Assembly: GCA_965216935.1 (NCBI GenBank)
Contig: OZ244217.1
Location: 601,827-665,826, forward strand
Direction: 5' to 3'
Length of the DNA stretch: 64,000 bases
Source: Acidobacteriota bacterium
GTDB lineage: Bacteria > Acidobacteriota > UBA890
Below are positions 6,449 to 49,482 of the stretch, in pieces (the first letter of the stretch is position 1; each line of letters begins with the position of its first letter). The notes beneath the pieces were generated by a model. It was given only the letters and a program-made list of their open reading frames with translations, did no database searches and was not told the DNA's origin. Both the position numbers and the translations under genes were made by a program.

Positions 6449-9168
6449 GCGCCTTCGCCCTCGGGTTGGCCGCCATGCTGTGGCTTCCGGGCTACCTCGT
6501 TCTCCGGCTATCCGGTGAACCGGTCGTCGGCGGCGAGGCCGGGAAGCGGCGCTGGTCCATCGGCGGGACGGAGAAGCGCTTCGCCGAGGTGGCGATCTCG
6601 CTGCTCTTCTTGCTCTGGATCGGCGTCACTCTGGCGACGATCGGCGTGATGTTGCCGGCGACCCTACTCGGCGCCCTTGCCCTGCCGGCGTTGGCGGCCG
6701 CGGTCCTGTTCACCAAGCGCGAAGGTCGCCTGCCGCTGCCGTGGCGCGGCGCCACGTCGTCCGCGGCGATGTCGCCCGCAGCCCTGTCGGACGGACAACC
6801 TCGCCTCATCGGTTGGGTGGCGCTGGCCCTGGCCATCGCCGGCGGGCTGCTGTATCAGCCCCCCTTCGAACAGATCGTCGGCGGCCAGGACCCGGTGACC
6901 TACATGGTCTCGGGCATTCAGCTGGGGCGGACGGGCGCCTGGGAGTCGACCGACGAGATCGTTCGCACGATTCCCGAGCAGCAGCGGACAATTCTCCTCG
7001 GCCCGGACCTGCGGGAGAGGCTCGGGCATTGGTCATCTCGGTTCCTCGGCTGGTATCTGATGGATCCCGAGAGCGCCCGGGTCGTTCCGCAAGGGTTGCC
7101 CCTCTATCCGGTGGCGATCGCCGTCGGCTACATGGTCGCGGGGGTGGAGGGGGCGGTTCGGGTCACGCCGATCCTCGCGGTGGCCGCGGTGCTGGCGCTC
7201 TTCTTTCTCGGCAGCCGGTGGCTGGGAGTCGCTGCTGGTGCGATCGGCGCGCTCCTGTTGCTCGTCTCCCCCCCGCAGGTGTGGTTCTCGCGCTTCGCCA
7301 CGGCGGAGTCGGTAACCCAGCTGCTCTTCGTTCTCGGCCTCTACGGCCTTCTAATGCAGCGTCGTGGGGGCGGCTGGGCCTTCGGGCTGATGGCGGCGGT
7401 CGCCTTCGGGCTCTCCTGGCAGGCGCACATCTGGACGGTGTGGTTGGTGCTGCCGCTGGCCGCCATCCTGCTGTTCGATATCCGCCGCGGGCTGCTCGAT
7501 CGTACGGTTCTGCTGTCGTTCTGGGGGCCGCTGGTCGTTCTCGGGCTGCAGGCGCTCACGCTCTACTTCACCGTAACGACGGCGTATCTGCTCGGTGCCT
7601 ACAAGGTGATCCGGCAGTCGAGCTGGGCCCTCATACCGCTGATCCCCGGGGTGGTCGTCCTGTTGTTCGCGCTGTGGTACTGGGGCCGCCGGTCGGGGGC
7701 GTCGGGGTCGGGGGGAGGCTCGCAGGGCCCTGAAGGGTCCGAGCCCGGGGCGCCCCACGACCATTCCGCCGGTGCCGTCGGCTGGCCGCGCAAGGTGATC
7801 GCCGCAGGTGTGGTGATCGTGGCCGTCTACGGCTACTGGGTGCGTCCGGCGATCACCGTGGTCGCCAACCAGTGGCGGGCGGAGTCGTTCGTTCGCCTGG
7901 TGGTGGCGGTCACGCTGCCGGTCTTCTGCTTCGCCGTCGTCGGCCTCGCCATGCTTTTCCTGGACCGCCGCCGTGGGGAAGCGTCGTTCTGCGTGCTGGC
8001 GATGACCTTGGGAATCATGGTGCCGGTCCTCTACGAGCCGAACATCGTCCGCTGGATGTTGTGGGCGGTACGCCGTTACCACGCCTTCCTGCCGCTGGTG
8101 TGCCTGTTCGCCGCCGTGCCGATATGGTTCGCCGTGAGTGGCGGCGGTGCGTGGCGGGCCGCGTTCGGCCCGCCGAGAGGGACCGGAGTGGTAGAGGACG
8201 GTTCTACGGGAGGGGACGGCGGCGCCGTGGTTCCTGAGGGTCGCCCGGGCACGGTGACGGGTCCGAGGTGGGCGGTGGTGGCGGGTGTTCTGGTGGTGGC
8301 GCTCCTCGCGCTGCCCCTGGGCTCTCGGGGCTGGACGTTCCGCGGCTTCAAGCAGCCGGGCGAGAGCATCGCGCTGGTCGAGGAGATGGCCGCGAGCTTC
8401 GAGGACAACGCCGTGCTGGTCTTCGAAGCGCGCTCCGGTTGGGGAGCACTGGACTTCGCCGCCCCGCTGGCCTATTGGAAGGGCTTCGACGTCGTGCTGC
8501 TGTGGCACAAGGAGACCGACGCGGCGGTGCTGATCGACTTTGTCCGGCGCCAGGCGCAGCGCGGCCGGCCTGTCTACTTCATCACCCAGGGCTTCAACTA
8601 CTTCGTCTCCGAGCCGCGCATGGTGCCCCATCGCCGCTGGCGGTTCGCGCGTCTCCACATGCAGCAGCTGGACGGCCAGCTGCCGCGTGTCGTCATTCCC
8701 TCGAGCTTTCCGGTCTCCAGCTACCGGCTCGAGCCTTCGGGTGTGAACGGACCGCTGGACGGCATGCTGGATGTCGGCGAATGGGACGACGTCTACGTCG
8801 GCGAAGCCCTGCCGTGGGAATACTCCGGCGACATCACTGCCCGGTGGACGAAGCAGACCGGATTCTTCTGGCTCCCCGGCCTGGACGAGACGGCGACGGA
8901 GATCGTCGTCCACGCCGACACGATCCATGGGTCGGAGGCCTTCGACCGGCGGCTTCGCGCCCGTCTCGACGGTATCGATCTCGGCGAGATTCCCGTCGAG
9001 CAGCAGTGGACCGACTACGTTTTCGAGGTACCCTCCGACTGGCGTCCCGCGGCCGGCTCGGCTCCGAGGTTGGACCTGCTCATCGAGCCGCTGCAGCCCG
9101 ACGCCGTGAACGGTAACGGTGACCGGCGTGACCTGGGGGTACTGGTGAACGCGATACTGTGGCGATGA
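6445..9168 (+). CDS. Large polytopic membrane protein (about 540 aa with at least 10 predicted TM helices) plus a 360-aa C-terminal soluble domain; GT-C-like (ArnT/PMT-type) glycosyltransferase candidate
   Basis: Hydrophobic-segment pattern with a conserved acidic loop (GGQDPVTYM) after the early TM helices. It sits beside two polyprenyl-phosphate GT2 genes. Confidence 0.45.
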   Translation: MSAFALGLAAMLWLPGYLVLRLSGEPVVGGEAGKRRWSIGGTEKRFAEVAISLLFLLWIGVTLATIGVMLPATLLGALALPALAAAVLFTKREGRLPLPWRGATSSAAMSPAALSDGQPRLIGWVALALAIAGGLLYQPPFEQIVGGQDPVTYMVSGIQLGRTGAWESTDEIVRTIPEQQRTILLGPDLRERLGHWSSRFLGWYLMDPESARVVPQGLPLYPVAIAVGYMVAGVEGAVRVTPILAVAAVLALFFLGSRWLGVAAGAIGALLLLVSPPQVWFSRFATAESVTQLLFVLGLYGLLMQRRGGGWAFGLMAAVAFGLSWQAHIWTVWLVLPLAAILLFDIRRGLLDRTVLLSFWGPLVVLGLQALTLYFTVTTAYLLGAYKVIRQSSWALIPLIPGVVVLLFALWYWGRRSGASGSGGGSQGPEGSEPGAPHDHSAGAVGWPRKVIAAGVVIVAVYGYWVRPAITVVANQWRAESFVRLVVAVTLPVFCFAVVGLAMLFLDRRRGEASFCVLAMTLGIMVPVLYEPNIVRWMLWAVRRYHAFLPLVCLFAAVPIWFAVSGGGAWRAAFGPPRGTGVVEDGSTGGDGGAVVPEGRPGTVTGPRWAVVAGVLVVALLALPLGSRGWTFRGFKQPGESIALVEEMAASFEDNAVLVFEARSGWGALDFAAPLAYWKGFDVVLLWHKETDAAVLIDFVRRQAQRGRPVYFITQGFNYFVSEPRMVPHRRWRFARLHMQQLDGQLPRVVIPSSFPVSSYRLEPSGVNGPLDGMLDVGEWDDVYVGEALPWEYSGDITARWTKQTGFFWLPGLDETATEIVVHADTIHGSEAFDRRLRARLDGIDLGEIPVEQQWTDYVFEVPSDWRPAAGSAPRLDLLIEPLQPDAVNGNGDRRDLGVLVNAILWR

Positions 9169-42848: not shown

Positions 42849-44105
42849 TTGGGCATGAGCGCCCGCCGGATCTTTGTTTCCGCCTTCGTTACCTTCTCGG
42901 TCGCCGCATGTGGTCCACAAGCTGGGCCATCTGCCGCCGGCGGCACCTGGGTCGGCACGATCGCGACGGAGGGGGAGCTCACCACCGTCGTCAACGAATC
43001 CGGTTCGGTGTGGGGTGGCGTTGGCACGCTGGTCGAGGAAGCGTCTATCGGCACCGCCGAGGGTGACGACGAGTACATGTTGGGACTCGTCCGCGCGGTG
43101 GCGGCATCGGACGATGGCATCTATGTGCTCGACTCCTCGACGAAAACCGTTCGCTCGTACACCTACGCCGGTGAGTACGTCGGCGATGTCGGCCGTCGCG
43201 GGGAAGGTCCCGGCGAATACACGCAGCCGATGGGCCTGGCTATTGCCCCGGACGGTCGATTGTTCGTGCATGACGCCGGCCGCCGGAGGGTGAGCATCTA
43301 TTCGTCGCACGGTGTGTTCCTCGATTCGTACTTTCTCCCGTACGACGGCCTGGCGCAGCTCGTCGTCAGCCGAGCAAGTGTCGTGTACGGGCCCATTCTC
43401 GTCGATCCGGCAGAGCCCTACGCGCGAATGGCGAGGGGGATGCTCGCCCACGGTCCTGACGGCGCGGTTGGATCACCCATCGTGCCTCGTCGCGTCGAGC
43501 TCGAGGTTCCGCACTTCTCCGGTGGGCGGGGGATGGCTGTTCCGCACGCGCCGGCCTTTGTCTGGGCGATGGACGCCTGGCTCAACGTGATCTCTGGGGT
43601 CGGAAGAACCTATTCCTTCGAGATCGCGCGGGCCGACGGGTCCAGGACGGTGGTTCGCTCCTACCACGACCCCGTCCCGGTCACCGCCGACGAACGTGAC
43701 GCACTCATCGACGAGACGACGGAGTTCATGCGCCGGCGCTACGGCGAATCGTGGGCCTGGGATGGACCCGAGATTCCGTCGGTCAAGCCGGCGTTCGTCC
43801 GCTTCATGCCAACCCAGTCCGGTGAAATCTGGGTTGTTCGGCCCGGCCCGAGCGACCGGGTCGAGCGCGCCGATGGAACGGTACGGTGGCGCGACACGCA
43901 CAACATTGATGTGTTCGATCCAGGCGGCAGACTCCTGGGGAAGGTGAAGGTGCCGGTTGCCTCGGCGACTTGGCTGCGTCTCTACGCGACGGGAGAAGGG
44001 GGGCCTTTTGCATTCGTCCGGGGGAGCACGGTGGTCCTTCCGGTCGAGGACGAGGCCGGAACCATCCTTGTGAAGCGGTTCCGGCTCGTATTGCCGGGCG
44101 AGTGA
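42849..44105 (+). CDS. Lipoprotein with a six-bladed beta-propeller (NHL/TolB-like) fold
   Basis: Lipobox FSVAACG. Repeated blade motifs (DDGIYVLD, PDGRLFVHD, GEIWVVRPG). Confidence 0.6.
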   Translation: MGMSARRIFVSAFVTFSVAACGPQAGPSAAGGTWVGTIATEGELTTVVNESGSVWGGVGTLVEEASIGTAEGDDEYMLGLVRAVAASDDGIYVLDSSTKTVRSYTYAGEYVGDVGRRGEGPGEYTQPMGLAIAPDGRLFVHDAGRRRVSIYSSHGVFLDSYFLPYDGLAQLVVSRASVVYGPILVDPAEPYARMARGMLAHGPDGAVGSPIVPRRVELEVPHFSGGRGMAVPHAPAFVWAMDAWLNVISGVGRTYSFEIARADGSRTVVRSYHDPVPVTADERDALIDETTEFMRRRYGESWAWDGPEIPSVKPAFVRFMPTQSGEIWVVRPGPSDRVERADGTVRWRDTHNIDVFDPGGRLLGKVKVPVASATWLRLYATGEGGPFAFVRGSTVVLPVEDEAGTILVKRFRLVLPGE

Positions 44106-44246
44106 GAGGGATGTGGCCGACGCGCCGCCCGTCGCTCTTTGGGCGGGCCAACGAGGAAATGGCAACGACGCCGTTCTAGCGGGGCCTGACGTTCCCAGCT
44201 TCCGGGGCAGCTTCGTTCGTGTTCGATGAGCTTTCTCATGGAGGTG

Positions 44247-44299
44247 TGTGTTGGAGTGATTGACAACACGTCGCTGCTGTTGGTATGTTCTCCAACACA
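44247..44299 (+). promoter_or_regulatory. Sigma70-like promoter (TTGACA-18 nt-TATGTT) bracketed by a 10-bp inverted repeat (TGTGTTGGAG / CTCCAACACA); the ATG at 44299 implies a near-leaderless transcript
   Basis: Direct reading: TTGACA 44260-44265, TATGTT 44284-44289, inverted-repeat arms 44247-44256 and 44290-44299. Confidence 0.55.
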
Positions 44300-44595
44300 T
44301 GAGCGTCGTTCCGTTGGTGCGTCGTCGCGTCGTTCTGGCGGAGGATGCCTTCGCCGAGGTGGTGATATGGCGCCTGGATGAACCGGTTTCGCCCGCGCGG
44401 CATCGCTTCAAGCATCGGCTCGCCTACGTGGTCGGCGGCGAGTGCGTGTTGCGCTACGACAACGAGCGGGGCAAGGGCGATCATCGACACATGGGCTGCG
44501 AAGAAAGTGCCTACCGGTTCTCGACGCCGGGGCGACTGATGGCGGACTTCGCGGCCGATATCGAGAGGTGGAACCATGAACACGGTCGTTCTTGA
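44299..44595 (+). CDS. Small conserved protein (98 aa), putative toxin-like partner of the downstream wHTH gene
   Basis: Motifs HRFKHRLAYVVGG...RYDNERGKGDHRHMG. Overlaps the downstream gene by 20 nt. I recall similar small-protein/HTH pairs annotated as putative TA modules, but cannot name the family with certainty. Confidence 0.5.
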   Translation: MSVVPLVRRRVVLAEDAFAEVVIWRLDEPVSPARHRFKHRLAYVVGGECVLRYDNERGKGDHRHMGCEESAYRFSTPGRLMADFAADIERWNHEHGRS

Positions 44596-44923
44596 GGTGA
44601 TGCCTTTGTCCGAGGCACTGGACCGCGCCTCCGAGACAATGACGACAGGACGTGCAGAAGACGAGGCGCGCATCAGCTTCGCCACGCCCGAATTGCTCTG
44701 GCAGGTGCTGACCGCGAAACGGTGGGAGATCCTGAAGACTCTCTGCGGGGTCGGCCCCGTTTCGATCCGCGAGGCTGCCCGACGCGTCGAGCGCGACGTG
44801 AAGGCAGTCCACGGCGACGTCACGGCGCTCCTGAACGCCGGCGTCATGAGCCGCACCGAGGACGGTCGCGTCGAGTTCCCGTTCGAAGTCGTAAGGGTCG
44901 AGTTCGAGTTGCGTGCGGCGTAA
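44576..44923 (+). CDS. Winged-helix DNA-binding protein (115 aa), putative antitoxin/regulator of the cassette
   Basis: ELLWQVLTAKRWEILKTLCGVGPVSIREAARRVERDVKAVHGDVTALLNAGV is a wHTH pattern. Confidence 0.55.
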   Translation: MNTVVLEVMPLSEALDRASETMTTGRAEDEARISFATPELLWQVLTAKRWEILKTLCGVGPVSIREAARRVERDVKAVHGDVTALLNAGVMSRTEDGRVEFPFEVVRVEFELRAA

Positions 44924-45003
44924 CGTCCACCATTCGCGGACCGGACATGTCCCTGGCCATGGCTCGGACTCATTGTGCTCGCCGAGCCCTTTCCACCACC
45001 CCG

Positions 45004-45411
45004 TCAGGTCGGCAAACGGGGGATGGCGACGACGTCGCTCTCTACGATTCTTTGCAGGTCGGCGTCGCGGTGGAGGAGGTGGCAGCGGTTGGCCTCGGCG
45101 AGGGCTGCGATGAGGCAGTCGATGGTGGAGCGGACGGTGACGCCGCGCTTTCGGAGGGTGCGGTAGATCTCGGCGGCGCGTACGTAGGGGTGAATGCCGT
45201 CGGGCTGCAGGAAGGTCAGGTCCTCGAACCCCTCGCGGATGCGTTTGTAGCCGGCCGGCCGGCGCAGGCCCTGGAGGACCTCGGCGACGATCACTCCACA
45301 GGTGCAGATGTCGTCCTCGCCAGCGAGGAGATGGGCCAGGGCGCGGGCGGTCTCCGAGTCGTGTTCGTTGATGTGGTCGACCCAGGCCGACGTGTCGACC
45401 AGGATCCTCAA
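45004..45411 (-). CDS. vapC: PIN-domain ribonuclease toxin VapC
   Basis: ILVDTSAWVDHI...D...CGVIVAEVLQG, PIN acidic residues. TTG start overlaps the vapB stop (TTGA). The longer track ORF is an upstream artefact. Confidence 0.85.
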   Translation of the reverse strand: MRILVDTSAWVDHINEHDSETARALAHLLAGEDDICTCGVIVAEVLQGLRRPAGYKRIREGFEDLTFLQPDGIHPYVRAAEIYRTLRKRGVTVRSTIDCLIAALAEANRCHLLHRDADLQRIVESDVVAIPRLPT

Positions 45412-45608
45412 CGGGTCGTGCGCTTGCGGAGGGCGTCGAGATCGCCCTCCCAGGGGCCGCAGCCTTTCAGGTCGGCCAGCTTGCGGACGCGCCGGCGCCG
45501 GGCGTACTCGGTCAGCGCCTCGTTGATGACCGCGGTCTTGGTCCGTCCGGGGGATACCTCCATGGCGGCCGCCAGGGCCTCGTCGTCGATGTTCAACGTG
45601 GTTCGCAT
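45408..45608 (-). CDS. vapB: VapB-type antitoxin (66 aa)
   Basis: MRTTLNIDDEALAAAMEV... typical VapB/ribbon-helix-helix antitoxin N-terminus. Lies immediately upstream of vapC. Confidence 0.8.
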   Translation of the reverse strand: MRTTLNIDDEALAAAMEVSPGRTKTAVINEALTEYARRRRVRKLADLKGCGPWEGDLDALRKRTTR

Positions 45609-45727
45609 GATCTGTATAGTAATGCATACCTTTCTATTGTGAAATCTGCATTAGTTATCGAGATTTCCGTGCCTGTCACCCCGGTTCTTTGAGACGGTCA
45701 CCGCCGATTGTTTGATAGTCTGTGCGC
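45609..45727. promoter_or_regulatory. AT-rich divergent promoter region between vapB and the downstream plus-strand gene
   Basis: tgtatagtaatgcatacctttctattgtgaaatctgcattagttatcgag is strikingly AT-rich for this genome. It contains an ATGCAT palindrome. Confidence 0.5.
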
Positions 45728-46360
45728 ATGGCTCTGTTCGACATCGATGATCCGGGGATTGACGTCGAGGCGCTCGAGGAGCGGGTGCGGGCGGCGATCG
45801 AGTCGAAGCGGGGGGTGCGGTTTTCGGACGAGGAGCTGGCGGAGCTGCGGGCGGCGAAGCTGGAGCCGCGGCTGCGGCGGGAGGATTTGCCGCGGGGGTG
45901 GCTGGAGGAGGCTTCGGAGGTCCGGGCGCGGTTGCCGATCGTCAGCCCGCCGCCCGGCGTGGAGGCTTCGCCGACGGTTTCGCTGTACGAGACCGGCAGT
46001 GCGGGGCTGAAGGGGAAGCTGCTGGGGTTTGCGCGGCGGCTGATGCGGCCGTTTTATCGCTCGACGTTGAACCTCGAGACGACGCTGGCGGAGATGATCG
46101 AGGCGATCAATGCGCAGGGGGCGTGGCTTTCGGAGGCCACCGGGCAGATCGACCGGTGGCGGGAGCGGGACCTGCACCTGTTGCACAATCTCGTCGCCGA
46201 GGTGACGGCGGCGCGGCTGCAGCAGACCCACATGCAGGATCGCATCAACGAGCTGATCCGGCAGCTCGAGGCGCTCAAGGAACGGGAGCGGGCGCTGGAG
46301 GCGCTGACGGTGGGCGGCGAGCCGGGGGAAGAGCGGGCGGATGTTTCACGCGGTAGCTGA
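45728..46360 (+). CDS. Hypothetical protein with a C-terminal coiled coil
   Basis: 211 aa, charged with heptad-like C-terminus (INELIRQLEALKERERALEAL). No recognisable motif. Confidence 0.45.
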   Translation: MALFDIDDPGIDVEALEERVRAAIESKRGVRFSDEELAELRAAKLEPRLRREDLPRGWLEEASEVRARLPIVSPPPGVEASPTVSLYETGSAGLKGKLLGFARRLMRPFYRSTLNLETTLAEMIEAINAQGAWLSEATGQIDRWRERDLHLLHNLVAEVTAARLQQTHMQDRINELIRQLEALKERERALEALTVGGEPGEERADVSRGS

Positions 46361-48210: not shown

Positions 48211-48315
48211 CTCGATGCGGACAATTGGCAATGAATCGTAAAGGGATCGGGGCTCGACGCGGACAAATGCCCGATCGTAAAGGGATCGGTGGTCGACGCG
48301 GATCATCGGTGGCGT
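48211..48315. repeat. About 2.5 tandem copies of a 40-bp unit containing a CCGATC-N7-GATCGG hairpin
   Basis: ctcgatgcggacaattggcaatgaatcgtaaagggatcgggg / ctcgacgcggacaaatgcccgatcgtaaagggatcggtgg / tcgacgcggatcatcggtggcg, between obg and nadD. Confidence 0.8.
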
Positions 48316-48337
48316 ATCGCAACGGAGAAGAACCGAC

Positions 48338-49030
48338 ATGGCGTTGAAGAGGGTGGGCGTTTTCGGGGGGACCTTCGATCCCCCGCACCTGGGGCATCTG
48401 ATTCTGGCGGAAGAGATCCGCGAGACCTTCGGACTGTCCGAGGTGCACTTCATGCCCTGCAACGAGCCGCCGCACAAGGATCGCGCCGATCTCACCGACG
48501 CGAAGCACCGTTTTGCCATGGTGGTCGCGGCAACCCTCCACAATCCGTCGTTCGTCGCCTCGCCCATCGAGGTGAATCGGCCCGGGAAGAGCTTCAGCAT
48601 CGACACGGTGCGGGAGCTTCAGCAGGGCATGGGCGACGATACCGAGATCGTCTTCGTTACCGGCCTCGACGCCTTCCTCGAGATCGAGACGTGGGAGGAA
48701 TACGAGCAGTTCCTCGACCTCTGCCACGTTGTCGTCGTCAGCCGCCCGGGCCACGGCTTCGAGGACGTCGGCAAGCTGCCCGACTGGATCGGCGAGCGGG
48801 TGGTCGACCTGCGGGGATCGGAGGCTCCGGCGGTAGAGCAGTATCCCGAGGGCTCGCGCGCGGTTTTCCTGTCCGACGCGGTGCACATCGATATTTCGTC
48901 CACCGACATCCGCGAGCGCATCGCCGCGGGGTCGAGCGTCCGCTACAAGATCCCCTCCGAGGTGGAGCGATACCTCCGTGCCCACGGGCTGTACCGCGAG
49001 GCCGAGGTCCCGCAGAAGGTGGCCTCGTGA
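48338..49030 (+). CDS. nadD: Nicotinate-nucleotide adenylyltransferase
   Basis: VGVFGGTFDPPHLGHL motif. Confidence 0.93.
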   Translation: MALKRVGVFGGTFDPPHLGHLILAEEIRETFGLSEVHFMPCNEPPHKDRADLTDAKHRFAMVVAATLHNPSFVASPIEVNRPGKSFSIDTVRELQQGMGDDTEIVFVTGLDAFLEIETWEEYEQFLDLCHVVVVSRPGHGFEDVGKLPDWIGERVVDLRGSEAPAVEQYPEGSRAVFLSDAVHIDISSTDIRERIAAGSSVRYKIPSEVERYLRAHGLYREAEVPQKVAS

Positions 49031-49482
49031 GCGCTTCTCCGGGCGCATCGAAGCCCGACCGCGTTGCGCTTCCCGAAGCGGTCAAGCTTGTCGCCGACGC
49101 GACCGAGGACCTCAAGGCGGAAGATCTTCTGGTCCTCGACCTGCGGGAGGTGGCGAGCTTTACCGACTACCTGCTGATTTGCACCGGCGGCAGCGATCGC
49201 CACGTTCAAGCCATCGTCGACGGCATCCGCACGAAGCTGCGCGACAGCGACGTGACGCCGCTGCACACGGAGGGATATGACCAGGCGGCCTGGGTCCTGA
49301 TCGATTTCGTCGACTTCCTGGTGAACGTGTTCACCGCCGAAGCGCGCGAGTTCTACCAGCTGGACCGTGTCTGGCGGGACGCGCCGGTCCTTCTGGGCGA
49401 CCGCCCGGAAGGTTCGGTGGAGCCGGAGCAGCTCGACCAGGAGGGTCCGGTGGAACCGGCGGCCGACGCCGGCGATGGCTGA
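49027..49482 (+). CDS. rsfS: Ribosomal silencing factor RsfS (Iojap)
   Basis: LKAEDLLVLDLREVASFTDYLLICTGGSDRHVQAI. GTG start overlaps the nadD stop (GTGA). Confidence 0.88.
   Translation: MSASPGASKPDRVALPEAVKLVADATEDLKAEDLLVLDLREVASFTDYLLICTGGSDRHVQAIVDGIRTKLRDSDVTPLHTEGYDQAAWVLIDFVDFLVNVFTAEAREFYQLDRVWRDAPVLLGDRPEGSVEPEQLDQEGPVEPAADAGDG

Follow-up and report, generated by a model that had tools for sequence, protein, structure and literature searches.

In 2023 Durairaj et al. described in Nature the TumE-TumA pairs, a superfamily of toxin-antitoxin (TA) systems that target translation (PMC10584680). Six gammaproteobacterial proteins of the family DUF6516 halted growth of Escherichia coli and were neutralised by the neighbouring genes, and the TumE of Allochromatium tepidum lowered the incorporation of 35S-methionine; an RNase activity was proposed, not shown (PMC10584680). 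In TumE clusters 1, 2, 4 and 6 the toxin mostly lies downstream of its partner, and one of the partner families of cluster 1 is a remote homologue of RelB (PMC10584680). In the literature that we searched no later papers on TumE, or on the DNA-binding family HVO_A0114 that is its partner in what follows, were found. Here we analyse a pair of overlapping genes, ORF1 and ORF2, in a stretch of 64,000 nucleotides of an Acidobacteriota bacterium (contig OZ244217.1), of which the whole is called the window below. The pair is very probably a self-contained type II TA cassette of about 677 bp that belongs to the TumE-TumA superfamily, is predicted to be repressed by ORF2 and would make its toxin from a leaderless or near-leaderless mRNA and its antitoxin from an internal ribosome-binding site (RBS).

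The original prediction had named the two ORFs, their overlap of 20 nt (44576-44595), a promoter and an inverted repeat, and all of these were found where it had put them (Table 1). A Pfam search gave matches above the curated cutoffs for both proteins. ORF1 (98 amino acids) belongs to PF20126 (TumE, formerly DUF6516) with 47 bits versus a cutoff of 23.4 (E = 2.7e-12) and covers positions 2-81 of the 81 positions of the profile, i.e. the full length of the family; ORF2 (115 amino acids) belongs to PF25212 (HVO_A0114) with 96.4 bits versus a cutoff of 27.6 (E = 8.5e-28) and is the winged-helix protein that it had been taken for. The toxin had been left without a family, the pair being considered a possible poorly characterised TA or abortive-infection-type system; the family can now be given as TumE, and the TA type is supported. 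Besides the close homologues of ORF1 there are at least 8000 of ORF2 in the public databases, and NCBI names among them are "toxin-antitoxin system TumE family protein" and "HVO_A0114 family putative DNA-binding protein", which RefSeq also uses for the equivalent pair in Stx1c prophages of E. coli. Judged by its sequence, the pair is an ordinary member of an already named family, and for annotation the result is a routine one: TumE-family toxin and HVO_A0114-family putative antitoxin/repressor are the appropriate labels.

The arrangement of the two genes is conserved. For comparison 80 loci were fetched from the genomes of relatives (counts for the control region are given over 81 loci), mostly from Burkholderiales and Rhodocyclales, the other labels being Nitrospira, Methylomirabilota, Pirellulaceae, Verrucomicrobiaceae, Desulfobacterota-type taxa, Thermoanaerobaculia/Vicinamibacterales and Caldilineaceae. 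The homologue of ORF2 starts exactly 277 nt after the ATG of ORF1 in all 77 loci that are not cut by the end of a contig, and the 20-nt overlap is therefore identical in all 77. Relatives of 48-60% identity, on a plasmid of Brucella pituitosa and in an Stx1c phage of E. coli, keep the gene order and both Pfam families. When a single genome was scanned for each species, relatives turned out to be encoded in at least 590 of them.

The 100 nt in front of ORF1 are unrelated between the loci, except that about 47 nt running up to the ATG form a common block with the consensus tGTTGGAgtaATTGACAACa-N8-tGTTGkyAtnaTCTCCAAC followed directly by ATG. The hexamer TTGACA is present in 74 of the 81 loci, both of the palindromes described below in 55 and at least one of them in 76, and CCAAC abuts the ATG in 62. 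In all 62 loci of standard geometry the hexamer at -13 to -8 reads YAnnnT (A in position 2, T in position 6). Among the 36 loci with identical spacing the mean pairwise identity is 0.74 for the operator block, 0.77 for codon positions 1 and 2, 0.47 for codon position 3, 0.35 for the spacer between the two palindromes and 0.27 for the DNA further upstream. Eleven of the 47 positions of the block were fixed by the way in which the loci were selected; GTTGGA and GTTG, which the selection left free, are nonetheless at least 90% conserved. The operators are about as conserved as codon positions 1 and 2, an unusual degree of conservation for a control region. Both palindromes are also found in front of the copies on the Brucella plasmid and in the E. 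coli Stx1c phage.

The 10-nt arms TGTGTTGGAG and CTCCAACACA form the perfect inverted repeat of the original prediction. In the light of the other loci its arms are best regarded as the outer part of two palindromes of 18 bp, GTTG-N10-CAAC, here called operators O1 and O2; the pair of palindromes as a whole is two-fold symmetric, and the 10-nt repeat consists of its outer half-sites GTTGGAG/CTCCAAC plus three extra bases found in the lineage of the window. GTTG-N10-CAAC occurs three times in the 64-kb window, 0.39 times being expected; two of the three are O1 and O2, and the third (2290-2307) looks coding. The operators overlap a near-consensus promoter, with an 18-nt spacer from TTGACA to TATGTT and 10 of 12 consensus positions matched. 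The idea that promoter and repeat arose by chance in G+C-rich intergenic DNA and regulate nothing is almost certainly false. Perfect 10-nt inverted repeats with a short loop are indeed found in the window (67.6% G+C) close to expectation, 14 seeds versus about 9, so that by statistics alone the repeat is not significant, and its significance rests on conservation across the loci. It is this comparison that refutes chance, since most of the 80 loci, from several phyla, have kept the block at a constant distance from the ATG, whereas the DNA further upstream is unrelated, and since it is more conserved than third codon positions; moreover, the scan of the 1.7 kb from 44000 to 45700 gave two promoter-like sites in all, this promoter among them, where shuffled sequences lead one to expect 0.2. 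The promoter scan found none for ORF2 inside ORF1, no intrinsic terminator was found after ORF2 (z-score of the fold 0.72), and Rfam gave no RNA family over 43500-45800.

Table 1. Features of the TumE-like cassette (positions in the window; Pfam accessions where a family was matched)
Feature	Position	Strand	Basis or remark
Left arm of inverted repeat, TGTGTTGGAG	44247..44256		holds the left half-site of O1; GTTGGA conserved in 62/81 loci
Operator O1, palindrome GTTG-N10-CAAC, GTTGGAGTGATTGACAAC	44250..44267		overlaps the -35 hexamer; homology to the closest relatives begins here
-35 hexamer, TTGACA	44260..44265	+	consensus scan; 35-39 nt before the ATG in 74/81 loci
Operator O2, palindrome GTTG-N10-CAAC, GTTGGTATGTTCTCCAAC	44279..44296		lies over the -10 hexamer and the predicted start of transcription
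Extended -10, TGgTATGTT (hexamer TATGTT, 44284-44289)	44281..44289	+	consensus scan; TG at 44281-44282
Right arm of inverted repeat, CTCCAACACA	44290..44299		ends with the A of the ORF1 start codon
ORF1, tumE-like gene, putative translation-inhibiting toxin	44299..44595	+	PF20126; 1340 close homologues; pLDDT 95; no Shine-Dalgarno sequence
Shine-Dalgarno sequence of ORF2, GAGGTGG	44565..44571	+	within ORF1 at its 3' end, 4 nt upstream of the ATG of ORF2
ORF2, HVO_A0114-family winged-helix protein, putative antitoxin and autorepressor	44576..44923	+	PF25212

The ATG of ORF1 follows the -10 hexamer at a distance of 7 nt, where transcription usually starts, in 62 of the 81 loci, and none of the ORF1 starts has a Shine-Dalgarno-like site (mean duplex energy -0.4 kcal/mol, none reaching -6). 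For these two reasons the toxin mRNA is predicted to be leaderless, which agrees with the near-leaderless message proposed at the outset, the start site itself being a prediction. The window copy and its closest relatives (85% identity) have two extra bases, CCAACAC standing immediately before the ATG; for the window a short leader of 1-3 nt and a start without any leader are equally likely, and the transcription start is predicted to lie within 44296-44299. The start of ORF2 is of the other kind: its GAGGTGG is found across the loci 4-5 nt before the ATG, encoded within conserved R-W codons of ORF1, and the duplex energy (78 loci) has a median of -7.4 kcal/mol, 94% of the starts being at or below -6 versus 11% of background positions. 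A leaderless toxin message would be a simple answer to the need for an excess of antitoxin in an operon in which the toxin comes first. In RNA that reads through from upstream, a hairpin formed by the palindromes could cover the AUG (for the window -26.1 kcal/mol, z-score -2.3), which might limit toxin translation from such transcripts; the idea is speculative, as the same folding is to be expected of every palindromic operator.

That ORF2 binds in front of its own operon, as had been thought very likely for the inverted repeat, is a prediction that the comparison of the loci supports. Residues 60-92, the helix-turn-helix, are almost invariant; they have diverged in only two of 77 loci (L047 and L055), and these are both without the GTTG/CAAC half-sites. 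L047 has instead an inverted repeat ACGACG/CGTCGT, of which the right arm again abuts the ATG. A match between helix-turn-helix and half-site is what the co-evolution of repressor and operator would produce, the divergent cases being only two. For the HVO_A0114 family, of which no studied member was found in the literature searched, GTTG-N10-CAAC in two copies would be a concrete operator. ORF2 can survive without ORF1: in L087 (3001-3588; protein P0218, 195 amino acids) the reading frame of a truncated PIN_3 toxin fragment runs on into an intact homologue of ORF2, apparently by way of the 3' end, read out of frame, of a TumE gene that has been destroyed.

ORF1 carries the two motifs HRFKHRLAYVVGG and RYDNERGKGDHRHMG that had been called conserved-looking, and among homologues down to about 35% identity they are conserved indeed. 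In an alignment of 55 homologues of this range D54 is invariant, and N55, E56, G58, K59, G60, D61, H62, H64, H35, K38, Y39 and W24 are at least 90% conserved; ORF1 has all of these core residues. As residues of a putative active or binding site the signature D54-N-E-x-G-K-G-D-H-x-H64 together with H35, K38 and Y39 suggest themselves. A structure model calculated from the 55 diverse homologues (pLDDT 95.1, pTM 0.86) has six strands and one C-terminal helix and supersedes a poor model from 22 close homologues (pLDDT 59). The profile of the 55 sequences found no match in the PDB at E up to 10, and with the model as query Foldseek found none that was significant, the best match in the PDB having E = 0.61 and a TM-score of 0.36 and the best in a viral library E = 0.06. 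The published TumE fold has seven strands and two helices and no solved relative (PMC10584680). That the model of ORF1 lacks one too agrees with the report of the 2023 paper itself (PMC10584680), an alpha+beta fold, in which helices pack against an antiparallel sheet, without a confident match among solved structures being what a member of the TumE family should have.

A resemblance of ORF1 to the eukaryotic ribosomal protein uL2 came up in a search with the single sequence, with matches at the level of chance (E = 0.24-1.2), and was rejected. The stretch concerned, residues 54-64 (44458-44490 of the window), D-N-E-R-G-K-G-D-H-R-H-M-G, was aligned with the uL2 loop G-G-G-N-H-Q-H-I-G at E = 0.24; the resemblance is treated as chance because the 55-sequence profile gave no PDB match at all.

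ORF1 might also be the non-toxic partner of a winged-helix regulator, a co-repressor or signal-sensing subunit in a small regulatory module. Its very strong conservation (60-90% identity across phyla) would suit such a role, as would a partner and a gene order unlike those of the validated pairs and the nucleic-acid binding that DeepFRI predicted for the TumE clusters (PMC10584680). We nevertheless consider it very unlikely. The near-invariant signature is kept, the window shows no further operators of the kind that a regulon would need, its one remaining GTTG-N10-CAAC being the one that looks coding, and ORF1 never occurs without ORF2 in the 77 complete loci, whereas ORF2 occurs with ORF1 destroyed (P0218), an asymmetry that is expected for toxin and antidote.

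From homology and layout we infer that the TumE-type TA cassette would work as follows. Transcription would proceed from the near-consensus sigma-70-type promoter and begin at the ATG of ORF1 or 1-3 nt before it. ORF1, like the tested TumE toxins to which it is homologous, would stop growth by blocking translation; ORF2 is expected to neutralise it by binding and to repress the operon. Since O1 covers the -35 and O2 the -10 region and the transcription start, ORF2 bound to both, alone or together with ORF1, should shut the promoter off. The toxin would be translated weakly from its leaderless or near-leaderless mRNA and the antitoxin from the conserved internal GAGGTGG, a layout that would keep the antitoxin in excess although the toxin gene comes first.

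Several findings weigh against this account. The fold of ORF1 is shorter than the published one, six strands and one helix versus seven and two, and neither the NCBIfam nor the PADLOC models matched the protein. The tested TumE pairs are all of subcluster 1a and have antitoxins of about 75-105 amino acids (judged from the lengths of the synthetic DNA) that are small "hypothetical" proteins, RelB-like and not winged-helix, whereas the cassette of the window has its toxin in front and, as partner, a winged-helix protein of 115 amino acids; ORF1 was not placed in any of the seven published TumE clusters, and in the literature searched no tested member of the toxin-first, winged-helix subgroup was found. 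As to the leaderless start, the distance between -10 hexamer and ATG is in the window copy 9 nt rather than 7, and in the E. coli phage copy CAAC-ATG has become CAACATA, which is followed by a leader of 19 nt with GGAG. The predicted leaderless start is therefore widespread, yet not obligatory for the family, and the prophage copy with its leader offers a convenient natural comparison for the leaderless design.

The cassette is found in unrelated genomic contexts. Nucleotide similarity between the window and its closest relatives (84.6%) is confined to 44250-44925, that is from the first base of the operators to 2 nt past the stop codon of ORF2, and the flanking genes are unrelated (comparison with L081-L084). 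At least 15 of the related loci, Rhodocyclales/Burkholderiales-type, are bracketed by attC-like sites, with GTTCGGC about 70 nt before the ATG and GCCGAAC 15-20 nt after the stop codon of ORF2, and hold complete hairpins of 67-90 nt (L002, L004, L007, L009, L038, L049, L050, L062, L063, L066, L072, L074, L075, L076 and L079). In these loci the pair looks like an integron gene cassette with its own promoter; the fetched flanks showed no integron integrase gene, although no search was aimed at one. By this evidence the cassette is a unit of about 677 bp that travels, often as an integron cassette. For the window copy the integron cassette was rejected, as no attC-like site flanks it; the sole attC-like match in the window, at 8037-8169, is probably due to chance and seems to be part of a coding sequence.

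A unit that travels in this way could serve mainly as an addiction module that stabilises plasmids and integron arrays, the window copy being a stranded remnant. The 69 plasmid records that carry a relative, the attC-bracketed loci and the confinement of homology to the cassette itself speak for it; the window copy, however, has neither an attC-like flank nor an integrase or transposase gene seen in its neighbourhood. We regard this role as possible, if somewhat doubtful.

The cassette might instead have mainly an anti-phage role, abortive infection or superinfection exclusion, in which infection would free TumE and translation would be blocked; this differs from the account given above in role, not in mechanism. 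The contexts of some relatives point in this direction. The close relative L084 lies among genes for a Pycsar effector, AbiEi/AbiEii, BrnT/BrnA and an integrase, the relative in the Stx1c prophage of E. coli lies in an accessory region beside the genes for Rha and an antirepressor, both proteins match phage families (phrog_16135 and phrog_11214), and the pair in the window adjoins a VapBC pair. Yet no defence model of PADLOC recognised ORF1, and ORF2 gave weak winged-helix matches only; among 50,697 records of a phage collection one matches ORF1; and the neighbourhood in the window is otherwise housekeeping-like, with Omp85/PD40, tetratricopeptide repeat (TPR) and RsfS proteins. Defence against phages is thus unlikely to be the main task of the pair. 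The phage copy itself (L086, 1860-2610; Escherichia phage phiSTEC1589-Stx1c) comprises the pair and both operators and is also present in 18 of 5426 complete E. coli genomes.

In the window the TumE cassette sits between the gene of a beta-propeller protein and the convergent VapBC pair (45004-45643, minus strand), which consists of vapB (45408-45608; PF09957) and vapC, coding for a PIN-domain protein (45004-45420; PF01850). A promoter-like TTCACA-16-TACTAT ends 7 nt before the ATG of vapB, so that this operon, too, is predicted to be leaderless, and the same 7-nt geometry fits a host that commonly uses leaderless starts. Further downstream an ORF of 397 amino acids (48289-49482, plus strand) has a ribosome-silencing (RsfS) domain at residues 267-362 only, its long N-terminal part being without a Pfam match.

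A further-reaching proposal is that the toxin-first TumE/HVO_A0114 pairs constitute a distinct, widely transferred module whose defining trick is the combination of a toxin start built from the operator, a leaderless mRNA and a strong internal RBS for the antitoxin. At present this seems quite unlikely to us. If it were true, the output of toxin would be tied to the capacity for leaderless translation, and hence to stress, phage takeover or changes in initiation factors; read-through transcripts, e.g. from an integron promoter, could give antitoxin and little toxin via the fold that can cover the AUG; and the minimal TumE fold of 98 amino acids might act on translation by a mechanism not described before.

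Among the known type II systems in which the toxin gene comes first and the antitoxin has a helix-turn-helix are HigBA, MqsRA and HicAB. The cassette shares with them the toxin before a DNA-binding antitoxin, the palindromes over the promoter and the compact two-gene operon; its toxin differs from theirs in fold and family, so that the likeness is a functional analogy only. To our knowledge none of the three is known for a start codon embedded in an operator or for a leaderless toxin mRNA. Leaderless mRNAs as such are found in the cI message of phage lambda transcribed from PRM and in leaderless TA operons of mycobacteria; with these the cassette has in common an ORF1 start at the usual distance of transcription start from the -10 hexamer and the lack of a Shine-Dalgarno sequence, the transcription start being a predicted one. 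Chromosomal integrons, such as the superintegrons of Vibrio, carry TA gene cassettes, which the attC-bracketed related loci resemble and from which the window copy, having no attC-like flank, differs. The closest likeness is that to TumE-TumA: ORF1 is a full-length PF20126 protein with the conserved residues, together with the gene of a putative DNA-binding protein its gene makes up a conserved operon of two genes, no solved structure is related to its predicted alpha+beta fold, and RefSeq gives the name TumE to relatives of the same arrangement. Compared with the published TumE proteins ORF1 is a minimal version, and with its 98 amino acids and its occurrence also in Stx1c prophages of E. coli it should be a convenient minimal subject for TumE biochemistry.

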